NCBI GenBank assembly: GCA_903937035.1 | Contig: CAIZXS010000017.1 | Span: 660-64,659 of the forward strand | Reading direction: 5' to 3' | Source: an uncultured bacterium | Lineage (GTDB): Bacteria; Patescibacteriota; Minisyncoccia; Moranbacterales; UBA2206 | DNA length: 64,000 nt | In this document: positions 2,513 to 60,197 of the stretch, in pieces | Layout of the letters: the number at the start of each line of letters is the position of its first letter | How positions within the stretch are numbered: position 1 is the first letter of the stretch | Notes under the pieces: generated by a model | What the model saw: only the letters and a program-made list of their open reading frames with translations | What the model was told of the DNA's origin: nothing | Database searches by the model: none | Translations under genes and position numbers: made by a program

Positions 2513-4009
2513 TTATAGTAGCCCTTCTTTTTTTAAATACTTCTTTATTTGGCTTTTAGCCAAAGATGTGCGAACAAACTTCAGCCAATCGCGGCTGGGG
2601 TTTTTATGATCCCTGGAAGTGAGGATTTCAATCACCTCGCCATTTTGAATCTTATGGTCCAGTGTGACCATTTTTCCGTTGGATTTAGCCCCGGTGGCAC
2701 GGTTGCCAACTTCTCCATGCACGTGATAGGCAAAGTCGATTGGAGTAGCATCTTCAGGCAGGTCAATGATATCGCCAAGTGGAGTAAAGGCAAAAATATG
2801 ATTTTTAAAAAAATCAATTTTAAGTCCCTCCATAAATTCAGCGTCATTTTTGCCCAATTCATTTTGCCATTCGCGCAATTGGTTGACCCAGACCAATTCT
2901 TTTTCAGGTACGGCATGCTTGCTTTTAAGAAAGAAATTTTTCAATTTTCTTTTATTTTCTGAATAGATCCAGTGTGAGGCGATGCCAAACTCTGCTTCGT
3001 CATCCATTTTTTTGGTGCGGATCTGCACTTCCAGAAAAATCCCTTCAGGACCAAAAATGGTTGTATGAATCGACTGGTAGCCATTTGGTTTTGGTAGTGA
3101 TATGTAGTCCTTGATACGCCCAACAAGCGGACGATATTGCTTATGTACGATGCCAAGCGTCTCATAGCAATTAGCAAGTTCTGGCACAATGATTCGGATA
3201 CCGATTAAATCATAAATCTTGCTGATATCCATATCATGCCGTTTCAGTTTTTGATATAAGCTGTGAATATGTTTGGTTCTGCCAAAGATATTCAAAACAT
3301 TAATTCCTTCTTTGGTTAGTTCTTTTTTGAGCTCACTCACCATTTTGTCAATGTATTTTTTTCGTTGTCCATATTGGTGGGCAACAAGTTTTTCTGTTGT
3401 GATGAAATTATCTCGGTCAAGATATTTGAAAGCCAGATCTTCAAGACGAACTTTAATCTCTCCAATCCCTAATCGATTAGCAATGGGAACAAAAACCTCC
3501 ATTGTTTCAAGAGCAATGCGCTGTTGTTTTTCAGGAGGGAGATATTCTAGTGTTTCCATGTTGTGCAGACGATCGGCAAGCTTGATGAGGACAACGCGAA
3601 TATCTGAAGCCATGGCGAGAAACATTTTGCGTAAATTTTCTAAATAGGTATCTTCCTTTGACCCGCGCAATTTAATTTTTCCCAACTTTGTCACACCATC
3701 AACCATTGTGGCAATTTCCTTGCCAAACTTGTGTTCAAGTTCTTTCAGTGTGACAGGTGTATCCTCGGGTACATCATGCAAAAGTCCTGCTGCAATTGTC
3801 TTGGATCCGAGTCCAATTTTTGCCAAAGTAAGTGCTGCATGCAATGGGTGCTGGATGTAGTCGTCTTTGCCTGACTTGCGTTTTTGTCCCAAGTGGGCTT
3901 TTTCCGCTACTGCATAGGCACCACGAATCAAAGCTTCTTTTTTGAATTCCAAGGTAAATTTGACGTTTCGCAGGACATCTTCAATGGTAATATTTTCTTC
4001 AATAGACAT
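2513..4009 (-). CDS. rel: Bifunctional (p)ppGpp synthetase/hydrolase Rel/SpoT homolog, short form
   Basis: HD hydrolase motif HPLHAALTLAKIGL...LLHDVPEDT; synthetase-domain YQSIHTTIF; TGS-like C-terminus. 498 aa with no ACT-domain tail. Confidence 0.85.
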   Translation of the reverse strand: MSIEENITIEDVLRNVKFTLEFKKEALIRGAYAVAEKAHLGQKRKSGKDDYIQHPLHAALTLAKIGLGSKTIAAGLLHDVPEDTPVTLKELEHKFGKEIATMVDGVTKLGKIKLRGSKEDTYLENLRKMFLAMASDIRVVLIKLADRLHNMETLEYLPPEKQQRIALETMEVFVPIANRLGIGEIKVRLEDLAFKYLDRDNFITTEKLVAHQYGQRKKYIDKMVSELKKELTKEGINVLNIFGRTKHIHSLYQKLKRHDMDISKIYDLIGIRIIVPELANCYETLGIVHKQYRPLVGRIKDYISLPKPNGYQSIHTTIFGPEGIFLEVQIRTKKMDDEAEFGIASHWIYSENKRKLKNFFLKSKHAVPEKELVWVNQLREWQNELGKNDAEFMEGLKIDFFKNHIFAFTPLGDIIDLPEDATPIDFAYHVHGEVGNRATGAKSNGKMVTLDHKIQNGEVIEILTSRDHKNPSRDWLKFVRTSLAKSQIKKYLKKEGLL

Positions 4010-6771: not shown

Positions 6772-6827
6772 AGGAGTTTAGTTTAATTATTTTTTTAGTA
6801 TGTATATGGTTGCAAAAAATAAATCCC

Positions 6828-7010
6828 AATTGTCATCCTGAGCGAAGCGGAGCGAAGTCGAAGGATCTGCTTTCCATTATCATAAGCCTTGCTATTGAGT
6901 AGAAAACTTTGGGCTGCGGTTGGTAGGTCCTTGTGCCACCGCTAAAGCTAAGGCGACATGCGGTCGGCTTCGTCCTAAATGCAGGACTCCGCTCAGGGCG
7001 ACACTCGTTC
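6828..7010. repeat. Composite hairpin repeat, copy 1 (GTCATCCTGAGCGAAG...GTCGAAGGATCT family); right arm decayed
   Basis: Left arm and loop (TTTCCATTATCATAAGCCTTG) match copy 2 at 21545-21700; right arm partially matches the reverse complement. Confidence 0.6.
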
Positions 7011-12690: not shown

Positions 12691-13917
12691 ATGAGTCCAA
12701 AGAGTGTTCTCATTGGAATATCTGGTGGCGTTGATTCTTCTGTTTCTGCTGCGCTACTCAAGGACAAAGGCTATGCTGTCAGCGGAGCCTTTTTGCGTTT
12801 TTGGGAGCCCAAAGGGGCTGATAATAAATCTCTGGCGGATGCAAAAGCTGTTTGTCGTATTTTGGGTATCCCCTTGGAAATCATTGAAGCAAGAGGGGCA
12901 TTTGAGAAAACAGTCATTCAATATTTTCTTCGTGAATATGAGGGAGGCAGAACTCCTAATCCCTGCGTTTTTTGTAATGAAAAAATGAAGTTTAAATTAC
13001 TCTTCGAAACGGCTCAAAAATTAGGAATTGAAATGGTTGCCACTGGACATTATGCCCAGGTCCTGCCTACGTCGAGCCTTCCGCCTTCGTTAAAACTTCG
13101 GCAGGCAAGCATGAAACATGAAACATGTAGCATGAAACCTGCCTACGCCTCCTCCTGCGCTAACCTTCTACGTCAAAGTGGTGGTCAAGAAGCTACGGCG
13201 GATAGAGATGCTCCGGCAGGCAAGCATGGGACAGGCAATGCAGAACAGAAAATGTGTTATAAATTATTTCCCGCGAGTGATAAGAAAAAAGACCAATCAT
13301 ATTTTTTATACCGTTTAAAGCAAGAACAATTGGCGAAAATTATTTTTCCACTTGGCGGATATGAAAAAACTGAGGTGCGAAAATTGGCGGAAAAATTTCA
13401 GTTACCGGTTTTTGATAAAAGTGACTCGCAAGATGTGTGTTTTATGGCGAATGGGAATTTAGAGGGATTTTTAAAAAATAAGATTGTCTTGCAATTTGGG
13501 AAAATTGTTGATACTGGTGGGAATCTGATGGGAGAGCATCGCGGGCTTTCTCTCTATACGATCGGACAAAGAAAGGGGATTGAAATTGGCGGCACGGGAC
13601 CATACTTCGTTGTTTCCAAAAACGTGCAGGAAAATATTTTGGTGGTAACTAATGATATCAATCATCCATTAATAGCTCGAAAAAAAATTGAGTTGGATGA
13701 TGTGGTTTGGGCAAGCGCTTTGATGTCGAATTTTCCAGCCTCTGTTCGAGTGAGGACGCGCTATCATAATCCGCTAATACATGCTACAATAGGGAATATT
13801 AGTGATGGACATTGCCAGTTGGAATTTGATTTGGCGCAAAGAGCAATCGCGCCTGGGCAGTCAGTTGTTTTCTATGGAGAGAGCGAAGAGATCTTGGGTG
13901 GTGGAATAATAAAATAA
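12691..13917 (+). CDS. mnmA: tRNA-specific 2-thiouridylase MnmA carrying an in-frame ~180-nt insertion
   Basis: PP-loop SGGVDSS, ATGHY and KDQSYFLY present. About 59 extra residues separate ATGHY from KDQSYF compared with typical MnmA. Confidence 0.88.
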   Translation: MSPKSVLIGISGGVDSSVSAALLKDKGYAVSGAFLRFWEPKGADNKSLADAKAVCRILGIPLEIIEARGAFEKTVIQYFLREYEGGRTPNPCVFCNEKMKFKLLFETAQKLGIEMVATGHYAQVLPTSSLPPSLKLRQASMKHETCSMKPAYASSCANLLRQSGGQEATADRDAPAGKHGTGNAEQKMCYKLFPASDKKKDQSYFLYRLKQEQLAKIIFPLGGYEKTEVRKLAEKFQLPVFDKSDSQDVCFMANGNLEGFLKNKIVLQFGKIVDTGGNLMGEHRGLSLYTIGQRKGIEIGGTGPYFVVSKNVQENILVVTNDINHPLIARKKIELDDVVWASALMSNFPASVRVRTRYHNPLIHATIGNISDGHCQLEFDLAQRAIAPGQSVVFYGESEEILGGGIIK

Positions 13918-21544: not shown

Positions 21545-21700
21545 TTTTCGTGTCATCCTGAGCGAAGTCCGTACTCGGACGCAGTCGAAGGATCTATTTT
21601 CCATAATCCAAGGCTATGAATAATTCACAAAGTCTACGATAATAGTGAACAGATCCTTCGACTCCGATCCACTTCGCTCAGGATGACAATTGCGTTGGTT
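21545..21700. repeat. Composite hairpin repeat, copy 2 (most intact)
   Basis: 17-bp outer stem GTCATCCTGAGCGAAGT/ACTTCGCTCAGGATGAC; 12-bp inner stem GTCGAAGGATCT/AGATCCTTCGAC. Confidence 0.8.
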
Positions 21701-26003: not shown

Positions 26004-27686
26004 ATGAATAGTCGACAAAAACTCAGATTGAAATTTTCCCTTGTGATTGTCCTTGCAATCCTAGCGGGACTCATAGCTTATCCTCAGGCGGTATCGAAAA
26101 TACCTCGTCTTTTTGGTATTTTGGATAAACCTAAGGTTAATCTGGGATTGGATTTGCAAGGCGGAATTCATCTGGAGTATAAGGCTGATACAAGCAAGGT
26201 GGACAGCGCTCAGGTGGGGGACGCTATGCAAGCCGTGCAAGATGTCATTGAGCGCCGTGTTAATGCTTTCGGAGTGGCGGAGCCTGTAGTCTATACGACA
26301 AAATCTGGAGGAGAACAGCGCTTAGTTGTGGAGCTCGCTGGCGTGAAGGATATTAATGAGGCCAAGAAAATGATTAGTGAAACTCCATTTTTGGAATTCA
26401 AGGAGGAGAAAATGACTGAGCCGGAAAAAATTCCCGAGGAAATCATCACTAGTGCTAATGAAAAAAGCAAAGCAAAAGCGGAAGATATTTTAAAAAAGGC
26501 TTTGGCGGGAGAAGATTTTGCCGTTCTAGCGAAAGATAATAGCCAGGATCCTGGATCGAAAGATAATGGGGGTGTTTATGATTTTCAAAAAAAAGGTTCA
26601 TTTGTGCCTGAATATGAAGCGGTGATTTTTGATGAAAATGTTAAAAATGACGAGGTGTATTCGAAATTAGTGGAAACTCAATTTGGTTGGCATATTATTA
26701 AAAAAATTGAAATCAAAGGAGATGGGGACGATCGTGAATTCAAGAGCGCACATATTTTAATTTCCAAAATGACGCAACCACAGCCACAGATGGATTTTGC
26801 CTCAACGGGACTTTCTGGCAAGAATCTGAAAAGTGCTAGCGTGCAGTTTAAAAGCCAGGGCCTTTCTGAGCCGGAAGTTTCTTTGAAATTCGACGACGAA
26901 GGCACAAAACTTTTTGCGGATATTACCAAAAAGAACATTGGGAAACGTGTAGCGATATATCTAGATGGAGAAATTATTACCGCGCCAACCGTGCAGAGTG
27001 AAATATTAAATGGTGAAGCCGTTGTTACGGGAAATTATACCGTCGAAGAGGCGAAGACTTTAGTTAAGAGACTAAACGAAGGTGCATTGCCAGTGCCTAT
27101 CAGCTTGGTGAGTCAGCAGTCAGTTGAAGCAACTCTTGGCCAGGTTTCGCTTGAAAAGAGTTTGAAGGCAGGAATGATTGGCTTGCTTCTTGTGATTATT
27201 TTCATGCTCATCTATTATCGCTTTTTGGGATTGATTGCTTCTGTGGCACTCCTTATTTATTCAGCTTTAATGATTAGCATCTTCAAGTTATCTGGTTTTA
27301 CACCATGGCAGATTACACTTACTCTTCCAGGAATCGCAGGGTTTGTGCTTTCGATTGGAATGGCGGTAGATGCGAATATTTTAATTTTCGAGCGGACCAA
27401 AGAAGAGGTGCGCAAAGGTCGCAATATTTTGAGTGCAATCGAGGAAGGTTTTAAGCGCGCTTGGACTTCGATTCTGGATGGCAATATGTCATCCATTATT
27501 ACGGCTTTAATTTTGGTAGAAATGGGAACAGGATTTGTGAAAGGTTTTGCAGTTACGCTTATCATTGGAGTGCTTGCCTCAATGTTCACGGCAGTTGTCA
27601 TCACAAGAACAATTTTGCGCTTTATTTTAGGGCCGTGGATTGAAAACAGAATGTGGTTAGTGGGCGCTAAGAAAAATGAATCATAA
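26004..27686 (+). CDS. secD: Protein translocase subunit SecD with a parvulin-type PPIase domain inserted in the periplasmic P1 domain
   Basis: SecD N-terminus LGLDLQGGIHLEY and C-terminal TM bundle. Between them, DFAVLAKDNSQDPGSKDNGGVYDF...FGWHIIK is a PpiC/parvulin signature. Confidence 0.8.
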   Translation: MNSRQKLRLKFSLVIVLAILAGLIAYPQAVSKIPRLFGILDKPKVNLGLDLQGGIHLEYKADTSKVDSAQVGDAMQAVQDVIERRVNAFGVAEPVVYTTKSGGEQRLVVELAGVKDINEAKKMISETPFLEFKEEKMTEPEKIPEEIITSANEKSKAKAEDILKKALAGEDFAVLAKDNSQDPGSKDNGGVYDFQKKGSFVPEYEAVIFDENVKNDEVYSKLVETQFGWHIIKKIEIKGDGDDREFKSAHILISKMTQPQPQMDFASTGLSGKNLKSASVQFKSQGLSEPEVSLKFDDEGTKLFADITKKNIGKRVAIYLDGEIITAPTVQSEILNGEAVVTGNYTVEEAKTLVKRLNEGALPVPISLVSQQSVEATLGQVSLEKSLKAGMIGLLLVIIFMLIYYRFLGLIASVALLIYSALMISIFKLSGFTPWQITLTLPGIAGFVLSIGMAVDANILIFERTKEEVRKGRNILSAIEEGFKRAWTSILDGNMSSIITALILVEMGTGFVKGFAVTLIIGVLASMFTAVVITRTILRFILGPWIENRMWLVGAKKNES

Positions 27687-29301: not shown

Positions 29302-30333
29302 ATGTTGAAAACGAAAATAGAAGAGATTAAAAAGCAGGTTTTGGAGGAAATTACGAAAGTCGGTAATAGTGACGCGCTTTTTGATTTGGAGAAAAAATAT
29401 TTGGGACGAAAAAGCGAGTTTGTGGGGTTTTTGAAAAATCTGAAAAACCTGGCACCGGAAGAACGAAAACAAATTGGCGAACTAGCCAATAAAACTAAGC
29501 TAGAAATCCTCGACATTATCAATGGAAAAAAAGCTGATTTGTCCAAAACCGGATCAAACGCAGAAAAAGAAAAAATTGACGTGACTATCTCCGGCAAGAA
29601 ACGTGGTGTGGGACACCTCAATCCGATTTCCATAGTACGCCGTGACATCGAAGATATTTTCACTGGCATGGGATTTGAAATTGCCGATGGACCGGAAATT
29701 GAAACTGAGTTCTATAATTTTGATGCATTGAATATGCCAGCTGATCATCCGGCACGTGACATTCAAGACACTTTTTGGTTGAAAAATAAAAAAGGCAAAG
29801 AAAGCCTAGCAATGCGTTCTCAGACCTCAGCCGTGCAAGCGAAGTATATGGAAAAGCACAAACCACCCTTGCGGATAATTGTTCCAGGGAAGTGTTTTCG
29901 TCGAGAAGCAACTGACACGACACACGATCATACATTTTATCAGTTTGAGGCATTGGTGGTGGGGGAAAATATTAATGTTGGACACCTGAAGCAAGTAGCA
30001 GAAGACTTTTTTTCACAATTTTTTGGGCAGGAAATAAAAGTACGTTTGCGACCGAGCTATTTTCCTTTCACGGAACCCAGCTTTGAATTTGATATTTCTT
30101 GCACTGTTTGTGGTGGGAAAGGATGCCGAGCTTGCAAATATAATAAATGGCTGGAACTTGGTGGCGCCGGAATGGTTAACCAAAATGTTTTTGAAGCGGT
30201 CGGCTATAAACGCAATCAATACACTGGCTTTGCTTGGGGCTTTGGATTGGAACGTCTCGCAATGATGAAATATAAGATTGATGATTGCCGGCTTTTTCAC
30301 TCGGGGGATTTGCGGTTTATTAGGCAATTTTAG
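29302..30333 (+). CDS. pheS: Phenylalanyl-tRNA synthetase alpha subunit
   Basis: Class II motifs FRLRPSYFPFTEPSFEFDI and GFAWGFGLERLAM. Confidence 0.92.
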   Translation: MLKTKIEEIKKQVLEEITKVGNSDALFDLEKKYLGRKSEFVGFLKNLKNLAPEERKQIGELANKTKLEILDIINGKKADLSKTGSNAEKEKIDVTISGKKRGVGHLNPISIVRRDIEDIFTGMGFEIADGPEIETEFYNFDALNMPADHPARDIQDTFWLKNKKGKESLAMRSQTSAVQAKYMEKHKPPLRIIVPGKCFRREATDTTHDHTFYQFEALVVGENINVGHLKQVAEDFFSQFFGQEIKVRLRPSYFPFTEPSFEFDISCTVCGGKGCRACKYNKWLELGGAGMVNQNVFEAVGYKRNQYTGFAWGFGLERLAMMKYKIDDCRLFHSGDLRFIRQF

Positions 30334-30349
30334 TGATCTCTACGAATTA

Positions 30350-30379
30350 CCTGCCTACTCTGCCTACCGGCAGGCGAAT
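30350..30379. repeat. GC-rich palindromic motif CCTGCCTAC-TCTGCCTACCGGCAGGCGAAT in the pheS-pheT spacer
   Basis: Same CTGCCTAC/GGCAGGC unit as in mnmA, the pseudo-tRNA-Tyr D-loop and repeat R6. Confidence 0.7.
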
Positions 30380-30411: not shown

Positions 30412-32832
30412 ATGCGTTATTCATTTGGTTGGTTACAAGAATTAAGCGGAACAAAACTATCTCCTGAAAAAGCGGCGGAGCTTTTGACGATGCATTCGTT
30501 TGAGATTGAAGGTTTGGAGAAAAACAATAATAATTTTGATGGTGTGGTGGTGGGTGAAATATTGGAAATCACAAAGCATCCAAACGCTGATAAATTACAG
30601 ATCGCAATCGTAGAGACGCATTGCAACGCGTCTGTACAAAAATTGCAAATCGTCTGCGGCGCGCCAAATATTGCGGTTGGTCAAAAAGTGCCAGTAGCCT
30701 TAGTTGGGACGACATTGCCGGGGGATTTTACAATCAAAGAGGCTGAAATCCGCGGAGTGAAATCTTTTGGTATGCTTTGCGCGGAGGATGAGCTAGGCTT
30801 AGGCAAAGATCATGCGGGAATTTTAATCCTCGATAAAAAGGCGAAAGTGGGTGAGTTGGCGGCAAAATATTTAGGCGGAACAGATGATAGTGTTTTGGAA
30901 ATTAAAGTCTTGCCGGATCGCGCGCATGATATTTTGAGTCATGTTGGTGTGGCAAGAGAATTGGCTGTTTTGGAAAAAAGGAAGTTCTCCGCCCAAGGTG
31001 GATCCGCCTCAGGCGGAGCCTATGCTTTTGACGAGCTGATTTTACCAACAAAAAAAAACCAAAAACTGAAAGTGGAAATTAAAGATAAGGATTTGTGCAG
31101 GAGATACATTGGCGCGGTGATGGAAAATATTGTCATTAAAGAATCGCCACAATGGCTGAAAGACAGATTAGAAATTTGTGGTCTGCGGCCGATTAATAAT
31201 GTAGTAGATGCGACGAATTATGTAATGCTCGAGTTGGGACAGCCTCTGCATGCTTTTGATCGCGATTTAATTCAAGATGCTAATAAAAAATGTCAGATAG
31301 TGGTTCGCGGGGCTGTAAAAGATGAAAAAATGACACTTCTGGATGGTACTGAAATTGAACTATCGGAAAATAATCTTCTCATTACAAACGGCAAAACTCC
31401 TTTGGCACTTGCGGGGATTATGGGTGGAAAAGAGTCTGGAATAAATGAAAATACCAAAACGATTGTGCTTGAGGCGGCTAGCTTTGACGCGGTGAATATC
31501 AGAAGAACGCGAACGGCACTGGGACTGAACACTGATTCGTCTTATCGTTTTGAAAAAGATCTTGATCCTAATTTGACTGAAAAAGCGATGGTGCGCATTA
31601 TTGATATCTTGGAACATATTGCCGATGGAAATGTTGAGGGAATTGTGGATATTTATCCAAAGAAAATTAGTTCTTGGACAGTGAAGCTAGATTTGGAATA
31701 TGCTAATCAGCTCTTGGGGGAGAAAGTGCCGGAAAAAGAAATTTTAAATATTCTCAGTTTACTTGGAATTAAAGTGCAAAAGAAGAAGCTACTTGAGTGC
31801 CAAATTCCAACTTATCGCCTAGACTTGCGAACACAGGAAGATTTGATTGAAGATATCGGACGTGTTTGGGGTTATGAAAAAATTGCTCCGCGACCGATGG
31901 TGGCGGAAGTTTTGCCGGCAAAATTGAATGAGCAAGTTTTCTTTGAAAGAAAAATGCAAGATGTGCTCACAGGCCTCGGATTTGATGAAATGTATAATTA
32001 TTCTTTCTATAGTGCGGACGATTTGAGAAAAACCGGTCTTAGCGCGAGTGATCATTTGCAATTGGCCAATCCGATGAATCCCGATCAGGAATTTGTGCGG
32101 GCGTACATGGTGCCAAATATTTTGAAAAATGTGCGAGAAAATCTCAAGAATTTTTCATGCATTAGTATTTTTGAAATCGGCAAATGTTATCTGCTTAAAA
32201 ATAGTGAGCCTATCGAAGAGTGTAATTTGATTTTGGCAAAAGTGCTCGAGAAAGATTCTAATTTAGAAACATTTTATGGTTTGAAAGGCACGATGGAAGA
32301 TTTGCTTGAAGCGCTTAATATTAAAAATGTTCAATTTTTAGAAATTGAAAAACCTGGGACAATCTTAAATCCAGGAAGAACGGCGAAAATTAGTGTGGGC
32401 GGAAAAGTCGTCGGCTTTATTGGCGAAGTCAATCAAGCAGTGCTCGCGAGCTATAAAATCTCTAAGCGTCTAGCGGTGGCAGAAATAAACCTAGAAGTGT
32501 TGCGCCTCCTTCGCCAAGGCTCCGGCGGGCCGAAGAAAAATATTTTAGAGTATAAGCCAATCAATAAATTCCCAGTCGTTTCTCGTGATATTTCAATGAT
32601 TGTTCCGAAAGAAATTAAATATGCTGAGATTGTTGCATTGGCTAAGAAAAATGGCGGAGAATTAATCGATAATATTTTATTATTTGATCGTTTTGAAGCC
32701 AAAAATAGTATGGCGATCAGGATTGAAATGAGCGCGAAAGACCGAACATTGGAAGGTGCTGAGATTGATGCAGCGATGGAAAAAATCGTTTCCAGTTTGA
32801 AAGATGATTTAAGGGTTGAAGTGAGGAAGTGA
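30412..32832 (+). CDS. pheT: Phenylalanyl-tRNA synthetase beta subunit
   Basis: N-terminus MRYSFGWLQEL; tRNA-binding, B3/4, B5 and FDX-ACB architecture by length and similarity. Confidence 0.9.
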   Translation: MRYSFGWLQELSGTKLSPEKAAELLTMHSFEIEGLEKNNNNFDGVVVGEILEITKHPNADKLQIAIVETHCNASVQKLQIVCGAPNIAVGQKVPVALVGTTLPGDFTIKEAEIRGVKSFGMLCAEDELGLGKDHAGILILDKKAKVGELAAKYLGGTDDSVLEIKVLPDRAHDILSHVGVARELAVLEKRKFSAQGGSASGGAYAFDELILPTKKNQKLKVEIKDKDLCRRYIGAVMENIVIKESPQWLKDRLEICGLRPINNVVDATNYVMLELGQPLHAFDRDLIQDANKKCQIVVRGAVKDEKMTLLDGTEIELSENNLLITNGKTPLALAGIMGGKESGINENTKTIVLEAASFDAVNIRRTRTALGLNTDSSYRFEKDLDPNLTEKAMVRIIDILEHIADGNVEGIVDIYPKKISSWTVKLDLEYANQLLGEKVPEKEILNILSLLGIKVQKKKLLECQIPTYRLDLRTQEDLIEDIGRVWGYEKIAPRPMVAEVLPAKLNEQVFFERKMQDVLTGLGFDEMYNYSFYSADDLRKTGLSASDHLQLANPMNPDQEFVRAYMVPNILKNVRENLKNFSCISIFEIGKCYLLKNSEPIEECNLILAKVLEKDSNLETFYGLKGTMEDLLEALNIKNVQFLEIEKPGTILNPGRTAKISVGGKVVGFIGEVNQAVLASYKISKRLAVAEINLEVLRLLRQGSGGPKKNILEYKPINKFPVVSRDISMIVPKEIKYAEIVALAKKNGGELIDNILLFDRFEAKNSMAIRIEMSAKDRTLEGAEIDAAMEKIVSSLKDDLRVEVRK

Positions 32833-40839: not shown

Positions 40840-40990
40840 TCTGTCATTCTGAGCGCAGCGCAGCGGAGTCGAAGAATCTGCTATAGGTTATTGTAAGTTT
40901 TATTATATTACAGAAAACTTGAGGTGATGGGTAGCAGATCCTTTGACTGCGTCCGAGTGTAGTTCTACTAAAACACGTTGAACGTACCGA
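40840..40990. repeat. Composite hairpin repeat, copy 3 (decayed)
   Basis: GTCATTCTGAGCGCAGC...GTCGAAGAATCTGCTA with partial reverse-complement right arm TAGCAGATCCTTTGAC...TGCGTCCGAG. Confidence 0.55.
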
Positions 40991-44866: not shown

Positions 44867-45014
44867 TGTATTGCCGAAGTAGCGGAGTGGCAGAGCAACA
44901 GTTTGGTAAATAGTTGCGCTATCAAGGTTTGAAAACAAAATGTATTGCCGAAGTAGCGGAGTGGCAGAGCAACAGTTTGGTAAATAGTTGCGCTATCAAG
45001 GTTTGAAAACAAAA
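44867..45014 (+). repeat. Tandem direct repeat, 2 x 74 bp, each a degenerate copy of the 5' ~50 nt of tRNA-Thr(UGU) plus its leader
   Basis: The unit TGTATTGCCGAAGTAGCGGAGTGGCAGAGCAACAGTTTGGTAAATAGTTGCGCTATCAAGGTTTGAAAACAAAA occurs twice; a third copy runs into the real tRNA. Confidence 0.85.
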
Positions 45015-45020
45015 TGTATT

Positions 45021-45092
45021 GCCGAAGTAGCTCAATGGCAGAGCAACTGTTTTGTAAACAGTAGGTTATCGGTTCAACTCCGATCTTCGGCT
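45021..45092 (+). tRNA. tRNA-Thr (anticodon TGT)
   Basis: Acceptor GCCGAAG/CTTCGGC; anticodon loop TTTGTAA; T-loop TTCAACT; CCA not encoded. Confidence 0.85.
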
Positions 45093-45119
45093 CAAAAAAA
45101 TGAAAATAAAGGAAATAGT

Positions 45120-45203
45120 GGGTCTGTGGCGGAGCAGTCCCTGCCTACCGGCAGGCAGGAATCTCAGCTGAATGTAAATCAGCCGATCTCGTATCTACGC
45201 AGG
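45120..45203 (+). pseudogene. tRNA-Tyr pseudocopy: 5' two-thirds retained with a palindrome inserted in the D-loop; T-arm and acceptor 3' strand missing
   Basis: GGGTCTGTGGCGGAG...AATCTCAGCTGAATGTAAATCAGCCGATCTCGTATCTACGCAGG aligns to the intact tRNA-Tyr; CCTGCCTACCGGCAGGCAGG inserted at 45139-45159. Confidence 0.75.
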
Positions 45204-45257
45204 CGCGTCCCTCACCAATTTTGAACAATTAAAATATTTAGGGTAGAAGAAGCACAT

Positions 45258-45341
45258 GGGTCGGTGGCGGAGTGGTCAATCGCAGCTGACTGTAAATCAG
45301 CCGATCTCGTATCTACGCAGGTTCGAACCCTGCCCGGCCCA
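45258..45341 (+). tRNA. tRNA-Tyr (anticodon GTA), type II with long variable arm
   Basis: Acceptor GGGTCGG/CCGGCCC (one T.G pair); anticodon loop CTGTAAA; T-arm GCAGG-TTCGAAC-CCTGC. Confidence 0.85.
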
Positions 45342-45403
45342 CAAGGATACCCTAGTTCGAAATTGGTGAGGGATGAAAACCCTGCCCGGCCCATATCATT
45401 CAT

Positions 45404-50104: not shown

Positions 50105-50279
50105 ATAGTGAGTGACACGGTGGGGTAATTTATATTTGCGGACTTAAATCAGGGATATGAATATATTCCTTTCTACTCATAAAAATAGTTCTAACGTCCT
50201 TCACTATCCCGTGCATGACACAAAAAGAGGCTTATTTAAGCCTGTTTTTTGATAGGGCAGTGGGAAGTTAGAACTTTTT
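50105..50279 (+). repeat. Island repeat R1: degenerate tRNA-Trp copy (50151-50215), hairpin (50222-50250), GGGCAGTGGGAAGTTAGAAC box
   Basis: Segment ATAAAAATAGTTCTAACGTCCTTCACTATCCCGTGCA against tRNA-Trp CAAAACTTCTAACGT...ATCCCGTGCA; about 175 bp shared with R3. Confidence 0.8.
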
Positions 50280-51296: not shown

Positions 51297-51358
51297 AAAC
51301 CAGCCCAGAAAAAGTTACCTACCGGCTAAAAAAGAATTGGCTCACCCCAAATTCAAGT

Positions 51359-51473
51359 CTGGAATATAAATATACTCTTTCCTTTTCATAAAAATAATTC
51401 TAACGTCCTTTACTACGGCGTGCACTTGAGAATATAACCAAAATTGAGGCTTATTTAAGCCTCAATTTTGGTT
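51359..51473 (+). repeat. Island repeat R2: degenerate tRNA-Trp copy (51359-51424) plus perfect 15-bp-stem hairpin (51436-51473); closest to the native tRNA-Trp 3' flank
   Basis: GTGCACTTGAGAATATAACCAAAATTGAGGCTTATTTAAGCCTC against the native flank GTGCACTTGAGAATAGAACCAACTTGAGGCTTGGATAAGGCCTC at 45825-45873. Confidence 0.85.
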
Positions 51474-52684: not shown

Positions 52685-52853
52685 TAGCGAGTGACACTCT
52701 GGGGTGGTTATGTTTTTAAACCAAAATCGGGAATATAAATATGTTCTTTCCTCTGCATAAAAATAGTTCTAACGTTTCGGACTATGACGTGCAGACATAA
52801 AAAAGAGGCTTTGATTGGTCTCTTTTTTGGTGGGGCAGTGGGAAGTTAGAACT
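52685..52853 (+). repeat. Island repeat R3: degenerate tRNA-Trp copy (52728-52793), hairpin, GGGCAGTGGGAAGTTAGAAC box
   Basis: Collinear with R1 over ~170 bp. Confidence 0.8.
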
Positions 52854-55104: not shown

Positions 55105-55201
55105 TTAACCAAATCTACCATCGTAGCAGAAAGGCTTGGAATATAAACATCTTGGCTATTTTCTTGAAATAAATTTTTAACGTCCCTTATTATCCCGTGC
55201 A
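55105..55201 (+). repeat. Island repeat R4: TAATTAACCAAAT box at the stop codon plus degenerate tRNA-Trp copy (55138-55201)
   Basis: GGAATATAAACAT...TTTTTAACGTCCCTTATTATCCCGTGCA. Confidence 0.75.
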
Positions 55202-60158: not shown

Positions 60159-60197
60159 TATAAAAATAGTTCTAACCTGCCTACTGGCAGACAGGCG
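60159..60197 (+). repeat. Island repeat R6 (partial): tRNA-Trp-like ATAAAAATAGTTCTAAC fused to the palindromic motif CCTGCCTACTGGCAGACAGGCG
   Basis: The two repeat families are joined at one site. Confidence 0.7.

Follow-up and report, generated by a model that had tools for sequence, protein, structure and literature searches.

The mnmA gene of an uncultured bacterium of the Moranbacterales (Patescibacteriota; contig CAIZXS010000017.1) carries an in-frame, G+C-rich insert of 156 nucleotides (nt) that derives from short hairpin repeats. Here, we report the anatomy and probable origin of this insert, which lies in a 64,000-nt stretch of the contig (the window; coordinates are positions in it, and features are on the + strand unless stated otherwise). 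The best explanation, to which we give a probability of about 75%, is a mosaic assembled by at least two to three landings of repeats resembling repetitive extragenic palindromes (REPs) and Rickettsia palindromic elements (RPEs), which settled in frame beside an older 27-nt hairpin word in a permissive loop of the MnmA protein.

Host gene and insert

The host gene (12691..13917) encodes tRNA 2-thiouridine(34) synthase MnmA of 408 amino acids (aa), identified by Pfam and PDB matches. Pfam assigned the tRNA_Me_trans HUP domain (E=2.7e-65) in two stretches, as well as the M (PRC-barrel) and C (C-terminal) domains. PDB MnmA chains (e.g., 2DER) also matched the query as two blocks, residues 3-123 and 191-407, so that ~67 residues were left unaligned. 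The PP-loop SGGVDSS and the conserved cysteines are retained. The names given to its homologues put the organism among the Moranbacteria. Judged by its substitution pattern against the insert-free relative L001 (insert excluded; dN/dS 0.13, dS 0.33), mnmA is functional and under purifying selection. An AlphaFold2 model (mean predicted local distance difference test [pLDDT] score, 72.7) has beta-strands at residues 122-126 and 190-194 and a pLDDT of <50 across residues 134-186 between them, from which the insert is predicted to be the disordered tip of a beta-hairpin.

Between the conserved TGHY and KDQ motifs, the window MnmA has 78 residues, compared with 26 in the nearest relative (P0002/P0125), 23 in most Moranbacteria-like homologues, and 19 in Escherichia coli. 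A preliminary description of this DNA had reported this long spacer, had ascribed it to in-frame, G+C-rich extra DNA, and had proposed that it is tolerated as a surface loop; the first two points were confirmed, and the predicted structure agrees with the third. By codon-level comparison with the nearest relative (L001/P0125, 356 aa), the extra DNA spans 13063..13218 and comprises 52 codons without a stop. G+C content is 0.54 in 13063-13221, against 0.40 in the rest of mnmA and 0.40 in the window. Encoded peptides include LRQASMK and HETCSMKPAYASSCANLLR.

The nearest relative is syntenic, and its DNA is 89-92% identical over the compared mnmA stretches outside the insert, which it lacks. It reads ATC ATG AAA CAT AGA ACA AGC AAT GCA GAA CAG at the site, and homology resumes in the window with AAG CAT GGG ACA GGC AAT GCA GAA CAG. 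The term strain-specific, raised in the preliminary description as a point to check, is too narrow, because dS to that relative is 0.33. The exact 408-aa protein (P0121) was found on 15 contigs (ENA, JGI, NCBI, and Logan). Six contigs from separate ENA and Logan assemblies match the window over all 1,227 nt of the gene, bar one single-nucleotide polymorphism (SNP) at 12984, outside the insert; since all six carry the identical insert, it is not a misassembly, a doubt raised in the preliminary description.

Both ends of the insert are repeated exactly, CCTGCCTAC at 13062 and 13138 and CGGCAGGCAAGCATG at 13099 and 13214. A search for the 15-mer CGGCAGGCAAGCATG that tolerated up to 2 mismatches found just these two sites in the window (expected, 0.07), and two copies occurred in 0/100 shuffles. 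Complementarity between the ends is limited to 6 nt (CCTGCC/GGCAGG). The two units delimited in the preliminary description and the whole insert, folded as DNA and RNA, were no better than shuffled sequences (z = -0.7, -0.1, -0.5, -1.0), and one long palindromic element was therefore rejected. The earlier picture of two palindromic units forming a small inserted element is accordingly kept for its exact repeated ends and its repeat origin (copies at 30350, 45140, and 60176 and in many phyla) and is given up for the palindromic units and the single element, the insert being read instead as a composite of at least two to three insertions. The sole significantly structured part is 13100..13143 (-19.0 kcal/mol, z = -6.2), which consists of GGCAGG, the core hairpin, and CCTGCC. 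Right arm 1 pairs there with left arm 2, and the same pairing recurs in further minimum free energy folds. Two direct copies of the stem pair CCTGCC...GGCAGG-CAAGC thus surround a 27-nt hairpin word (MKHETCSMK).

The insert can be divided into two blocks around this older word. Block A (13063..13110; unit 1 of the preliminary description) is 48 nt placed between GTC and ATGAAACAT, and the empty site GTC^ATGAAACAT is found in L004/L005; comparison of the filled window with these empty sites gave no target-site duplication. It includes left arm 1 (13062..13070, CCTGCCTAC, with the stem CCTGCC) and a copy of the ~31-nt "FAKATADK/SLKLRRTS" hairpin word (13078..13110, CTTCCGCCTTCGTTAAAACTTCGGCAGGCAAGC), read here as LPPSLKLRQAS. 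Right arm 1 (13099..13113, CGGCAGGCAAGCATG) has the stem GGCAGG, a tail CAAGC that belongs to the repeat, and an ATG that belongs to the older core. That core, the 27-nt hairpin word ATGAAACATGAAACATGTAGCATGAAA (13111..13137; MKHETCSMK; z = -6.3), is common to more distant relatives. Block B (13138..13221; unit 2 of the preliminary description) is composite and holds ~84 nt after ATGAAA. It begins with left arm 2 (13138..13146, CCTGCCTAC) and contains, from a second copy of the ~31-nt word that has been interrupted, the right half (13192..13207, GCTACGGCGGATAGAG), whose first 11 nt equal the consensus GCTACGGCGGA. The left half of this copy is putatively 13147-13164, a weak match, with 27 intervening nt (13165-13191). 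Right arm 2 (13214..13228, CGGCAGGCAAGCATG) runs into the sequence at which homology to the insert-free relative restarts (AAGCATGGGACAGGCAAT, 13222 onward). Block B also holds CAAGAAGC, which matches the bases right after ATGAAA in L004, and it may therefore represent two insertions flanking older bases.

Relatives and the insertion site

The tip of the MnmA beta-hairpin is a recurrent insertion hot spot across MnmA proteins of the Candidate Phyla Radiation (CPR). Nine collected loci (L001-L009) share their gene order with the window. Beyond the nearest relative, which has no insert, more distant ones bear different short inserts at the same place in mnmA; a conserved loop of constant length, the alternative named in the preliminary description, was not found among them. 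The 27- to 30-nt word ATGAAACATGAAACATGYARCATGAAACAR (MKHETCNMKQ) occurs in the more distant relatives L004, L008, and L009, and its window counterpart is 13111-13137; the core word recurs with 2-4 substitutions in L004, L005, L008, and L009, and MKHETC(N/S)MKQ is encoded by many homologues. L007 and L006 have 21 nt (CCATGCCTGYCGGCAGGCAGG) after the ATG. L006 holds a further exact 21-mer, CCTGCCTACCGGACAGACAGG, at a site that is empty in L007 (AAACATGAAG^CATATAAC), again with no duplication. In L002, CCTTGCCTAC-CCTGCCTACCGGACAGGCAGG-CGGCAGGCAGG lies within an AT-rich "FPISNFQ" word.

Among 120 homologues, the length of the TGHY-KDQ segment varies between 15 and 78 residues, and peptides of repeat words fill it. 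These include MKHETC(N/S)MKQ, REFPISNFQFPNK, PPSLKLRRTS, and VIARSEATWQSR...LLRSARNDK, as well as the 7-residue peptide LAYRQAG or LACRQAG within FPISNFQ-type words (P0073 has a LAYRQAG insert). A distant CPR mnmA (P0119/L136) has an insert at this site and in this frame of which 27 of 33 nt agree with 13078-13110, the 3' portion of block A.

Two families of hairpin words

Two families of repeats contributed words of this kind. The family 1 unit is a 20/21-mer, CCTGCCTACCGG(N)CAGGCAGG, and its 20-mer has a stem of 6-7 bp (z = -3.4). The pattern CCTGCCTACYGG(N)CAGRCAGG was found in at least 120 stretches of one-genome-per-species contigs, where chance was estimated to give ~9, with flanks unrelated from locus to locus. 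Hosts include Bacteroidota, many CPR, Nitrospirota, Planctomycetota, Omnitrophota, delta-proteobacterial, Ignavibacteria, and Chloroflexi lineages and a few isolates. The family also occurs in 28 viral stretches, and the P22-like phage contig L261 (IMGVR_UViG_3300038551_000082; portal, terminase, coat, and D5-like primase) has at least 8 copies of the 21-mer. On this contig, three 21-mers lie at 2768-3774, inside the span of the N-terminal half of a glucosaminidase open reading frame (ORF), and some copies are nested in each other's loops. BLAST searches against cultured plasmids and phages returned only chance-level matches (E = 0.2-0.7), so the repeats seem to be rare in these.

Copies in coding sequence are filtered for reading frame. 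If a frame is taken as open when it runs without a stop for 60 codons or more on each side, 18% of 104 evaluable family 1 copies lie in open frames, compared with 55.5% of random positions, and the other 82% lie outside. The 21-nt form is enriched in open frames (12/19 versus 15/85; p=1.6e-4) and is mostly read as LPTGQAG. In-frame hosts judged by sequence motifs include UxaC, ArgRS, ProRS, a MurC-like ligase, a histidine kinase, and alpha-2-macroglobulin. Two more were confirmed against PDB chains, namely, TrpRS, with an exact 7-residue insertion relative to 2a4m, and GlyRS, with the copy in a variable linker. Family 1 flanks are complementary (at least 9/12) in 12% of loci versus 2% of controls and share a direct 7-mer in 19% versus 3.9%. 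Copies also nest in the loop of their own family, at several loop positions.

The family 2 full unit is YCCGCCT-TCGCTAAAGCTWC-GGCGGR-CAAGC (~31 nt). The pattern TCGYTAAARCTWCGGCRGRCAAGC was found in at least 120 metagenome stretches, and the block A copy at 13078-13110 fits it. The outer pair of the 6-bp stem covaries (C..G 66, T..A 42, C..A 3, and T..G 2; p=6.6e-25). A variant in L210 has the stems CCTGCC...GGCAGG, from which it follows that families 1 and 2 share stems and differ in loops. Open frames hold 41/88 family 2 copies (47%) versus 53% of random positions, read as FAKATADK, SLKLRRAS, LARRSFSEGG, or LPAEALAKAG. Judged by motif, the hosts include a UvrD-like helicase, a DnaG-like primase, methionine aminopeptidase, a P-type ATPase, and another MnmA, which has the word in a different loop. 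In this last case, on the metagenome contig Ga0265296_1000285 (L150, ~3665-3688), the word (WGGLARRSFSEGG) follows YTIGQRHG, a position equivalent to residues 296-302, a low-confidence stretch in the window protein model. A tandem array of the family 2 word with a 45-nt period was seen in a long open frame of L220 (~759-895), where it encodes SSLARRSFSEGGDFG repeats.

Other repeats in the window

Five hairpin-repeat copies were counted in the window. Outside mnmA, three compact versions of the unit from the preliminary description belong to family 1. A compact hairpin with a duplicated left arm (CCTGCCTAC TCTGCCTAC CGGCAGGCG) occupies 30350..30376, in the spacer between an ORF ending at 30333 and pheT. 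The exact 20-mer CCTGCCTACCGGCAGGCAGG lies at 45140..45159 in the D-loop of a degenerate tRNA-Tyr copy (45120-45216), with no target duplication; alignment with the intact tRNA-Tyr gene (45258-45342) leaves a single clean 20-nt gap opposite the 20-mer. A compact hairpin variant, CCTGCCTACTGGCAGACAGGCG, is found at 60176..60197.

The degenerate tRNA-Tyr copy stands just upstream of the intact gene, with its anticodon and variable arms mostly identical and its 3' end decayed, and it was called by neither ARAGORN nor Rfam. In the same cluster, two identical tandem 74-nt partial tRNA-Thr-like copies (44867-45014) lie directly upstream of the intact tRNA-Thr gene (45021-45093), which, together with the tRNA-Tyr copy, suggests repeated local duplication.

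Another repeat family, TGTCATCCTGAGCGAAG...GTCGAAGGATCT, occurs in spacers at 6827-6891, 21551-21692, and 40842-40958. At 21551-21692, two inverted copies around ~50 nt give it the look of a MITE (a miniature transposable element with inverted repeats), and in an unrelated genome (L050) the 20-mer hairpin lies within a copy of this family. The pheT gene (30412-32832) has two G+C-rich in-frame segments, 30987-31021 (SAQGGSASGGA) and 32501-32537 (LRLLRQGSGGPKK), both of which coincide with gaps or variable stretches when the protein is aligned to its E. coli counterpart (3pco_B), and these are possible further repeat insertions. The second resembles the family 2 word in another frame and the LLRQSGG stretch of the mnmA insert. 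Four 70-nt copies (50146-50215, 51355-51424, 52724-52793, and 55132-55201), 66-80% identical, occupy successive spacers, and each has ATAAAAATAGTTCTAAC, which is also found directly 5' of the hairpin at 60176; each copy, read on the minus strand, could begin a small paralogous ORF. A SecD homologue (26004-27686) has a PPIC-type peptidyl-prolyl isomerase (Rotamase) domain at residues ~144-236, between the SecD_1st and P1 head domains.

Origin of the insert

The mosaic can be accounted for by the following course of events. The words would belong to a repeat superfamily with conserved stems, CCYGCC(T) and GGCRGG followed by CAAGC or CAGG, and variable loops, present in many phyla and some phage contigs. 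Copies would insert without target-site duplication, often in or beside other palindromes, including their own loop, and selection would purge them except in spacers and at frame-keeping, stop-free positions in permissive loops. The MnmA hairpin tip, which already had a hairpin word, would have been struck repeatedly. Its insert would be translated as a disordered, low-complexity surface loop of 52 residues while the enzyme stayed under purifying selection; we infer that this loop is neutral. An enzyme that acts in trans on single-stranded hairpins presumably moved the copies. A single-strand mechanism of the HUH/Y1 type would fit both the missing target duplication and the preference for hairpin loops, and a transposase of that kind (a REP-associated tyrosine transposase [RAYT] or an IS200-like one) is our leading guess, and only a guess, for the mover.

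Several observations weigh against this account or narrow it. No RAYT or transposase domain was found by Pfam in 20 of the ~50 window ORFs or in 20 ORFs of the hairpin-rich P22-like phage contig. Orientation with respect to neighboring genes shows only a modest bias (50:29 and 46:24). Compared with the nearest relative, the change may be a gain or a loss, and translation of the insert is putative. A fuzzy search of ~1 Mb of collected loci found no close copy of the block interiors except the core word, so that whole blocks may be unique local constructs. Both blocks share the bases after the right arm (ATGAAACA and ATGGGACA), which makes a partly local duplication possible; as the copy at 30350 also has its left arm alone duplicated, local duplication probably helped to shape the insert, to judge from these sequence likenesses.

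A wholly local origin, by slippage or template switching at a palindromic hot spot that duplicated and extended the arms around the older word with no mobile element involved, would make use of the same features: the blocks are direct repeats with common ends and common following bases, their interiors had no close copy in the loci searched, and the hairpin at 13100-13143 reads as the older hairpin with its stem lengthened by 6 bp. We consider it unlikely, since the same 20/21-mer and 24- to 31-nt word recur base for base in unrelated contexts of many phyla, and the same words stand at the same mnmA site in other CPR lineages, with clean filled and empty sites. Slippage may have remodelled the insert but cannot explain the source of its sequence. 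It is more improbable still that the insert is an old lineage-specific loop with a function, such as contact with a partner or tRNA, that merely looks repetitive. The kept frame, the purifying selection, and the fixation of the 408-aa form in the sampled assemblies (15 contigs) would suit such a loop. The nearest relative, however, does without it, homologues vary greatly in the length and sequence of this segment, the model has low confidence there, and the DNA of the insert matches repeats that are mostly noncoding (the 20/21-mer family).

The insert interrupts a conserved domain, as a self-splicing intron, an intein, or a translational bypass element would, and G+C-rich mobile inserts bypassed by the ribosome exist in yeast mitochondria, yet removal as an intervening sequence has very little probability here. 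The frame is preserved without stops, and the enrichment of the frame-preserving 21-nt form in ORFs is what translation predicts. Rfam gave nothing at gathering score for the insert (the best E-value-mode hits reached 12-17 bits against gathering scores of 36-90, the best being 17 versus 81), and a group I or II self-splicing intron or known RNA was rejected because no family came near its threshold. An intein needs at least ~130 residues, with Cys or Ser at the N-junction and His-Asn plus Cys, Ser, or Thr at the C-junction; the 52 extra residues are too few, and the junctions V|LPT and ...AG|KH lack intein residues, so this candidate was rejected too. Repeats can mislead assemblers, and nothing else was found in favor of a misassembled or chimeric contig, the chance of which we regard as negligible given the agreement of the independent assemblies described above.

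We therefore return to repeat insertion in a permissive loop. A bolder reading extends it to an undescribed, pan-bacterial class of mobile hairpins of 20-33 nt with conserved stems and variable loops, which would spread between phyla by trans-acting machinery or by phage or environmental DNA, insert without target duplication into single-stranded hairpin loops, each other's among them, and keep seeding disordered loops in essential proteins of uncultivated bacteria, the MnmA tip being one recurrent landing pad. We offer this tentatively, at less than even odds. If truly mobile, the words would rank with the smallest mobile DNAs so far known, would generally supply proteins of uncultivated bacteria with disordered loops, and would in practice hamper the annotation and alignment of CPR proteins and the prediction of their structures. 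A single gene site that holds many different words across lineages offers a natural system for studying insertion and loss.

Comparison with known repeat systems

No relevant paper came up in literature searches for the DNA words and their peptides, and thematic searches returned only general REP, MITE, and RPE literature. Fungal mitochondria have GC clusters, double-hairpin elements, and "byp" elements, the last of which the ribosome bypasses and which have no need to preserve the frame. The repeats described here are like the GC clusters in being G+C-rich hairpins that spread in an AT-rich genome, into coding regions too, and differ in that the fungal elements are organellar and that frame preservation is enriched here.

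MITEs are small, nonautonomous elements with inverted ends that can create in-frame fusions (PMC10969869), features that our repeats share. Unlike MITEs, however, the present copies showed no target-site duplication in three filled/empty comparisons, their inverted ends are 6-7 nt, and the compact form is far below MITE size.

REPs are defined by a tetranucleotide, GTAG or CGTC, that stays unpaired at one stem end, and they form GTAG- and CGTC-tagged superfamilies that include intragenic members (Di Nocera et al. 2013, PMC3733652). They are mostly extragenic, often 3' of genes, and occasionally intragenic, including at the same gene site in related species, and some families are common to several species (PMC3733652). 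Likeness to REPs lies in the G+C-rich stem-loops of 20-40 bp and the lack of target duplication. Unlike REPs, the units here have no end tag and carry CTAC at the stem-loop junction; membership in the GTAG-tagged REPs was rejected because the only GTAG (the reverse complement of CTAC) spans that junction and is not an external tag. Identical units also reach far more distant lineages than PMC3733652 gives for single REP families.

RPEs, as relayed in PMC10969869 (Ogata et al. 2000), are ~100-150 bp long, are confined to Rickettsia, and encode a conserved peptide per family. Here as there, palindromic repeats lie in frame in many unrelated housekeeping genes (MnmA, TrpRS, GlyRS, ArgRS, ProRS, UxaC, UvrD-like, DnaG-like, P-type ATPase, and others), and the fold tolerates the extra peptide segments. 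Unlike RPEs, our units are 20-33 nt long, nested, read in several frames, and spread over many phyla and phage contigs, the host being a CPR bacterium. Since RPEs and intragenic REPs already provide in-frame palindromic repeats, the mnmA case taken by itself adds a new example to a known kind. The feature that sets it apart from these systems, and a more interesting lead than the mnmA insert itself, is the cross-phylum hairpin families, with identical words of 20-31 nt in many phyla and phage contigs, mutually nested, and in frame in aminoacyl-tRNA synthetases and in repair and replication proteins.

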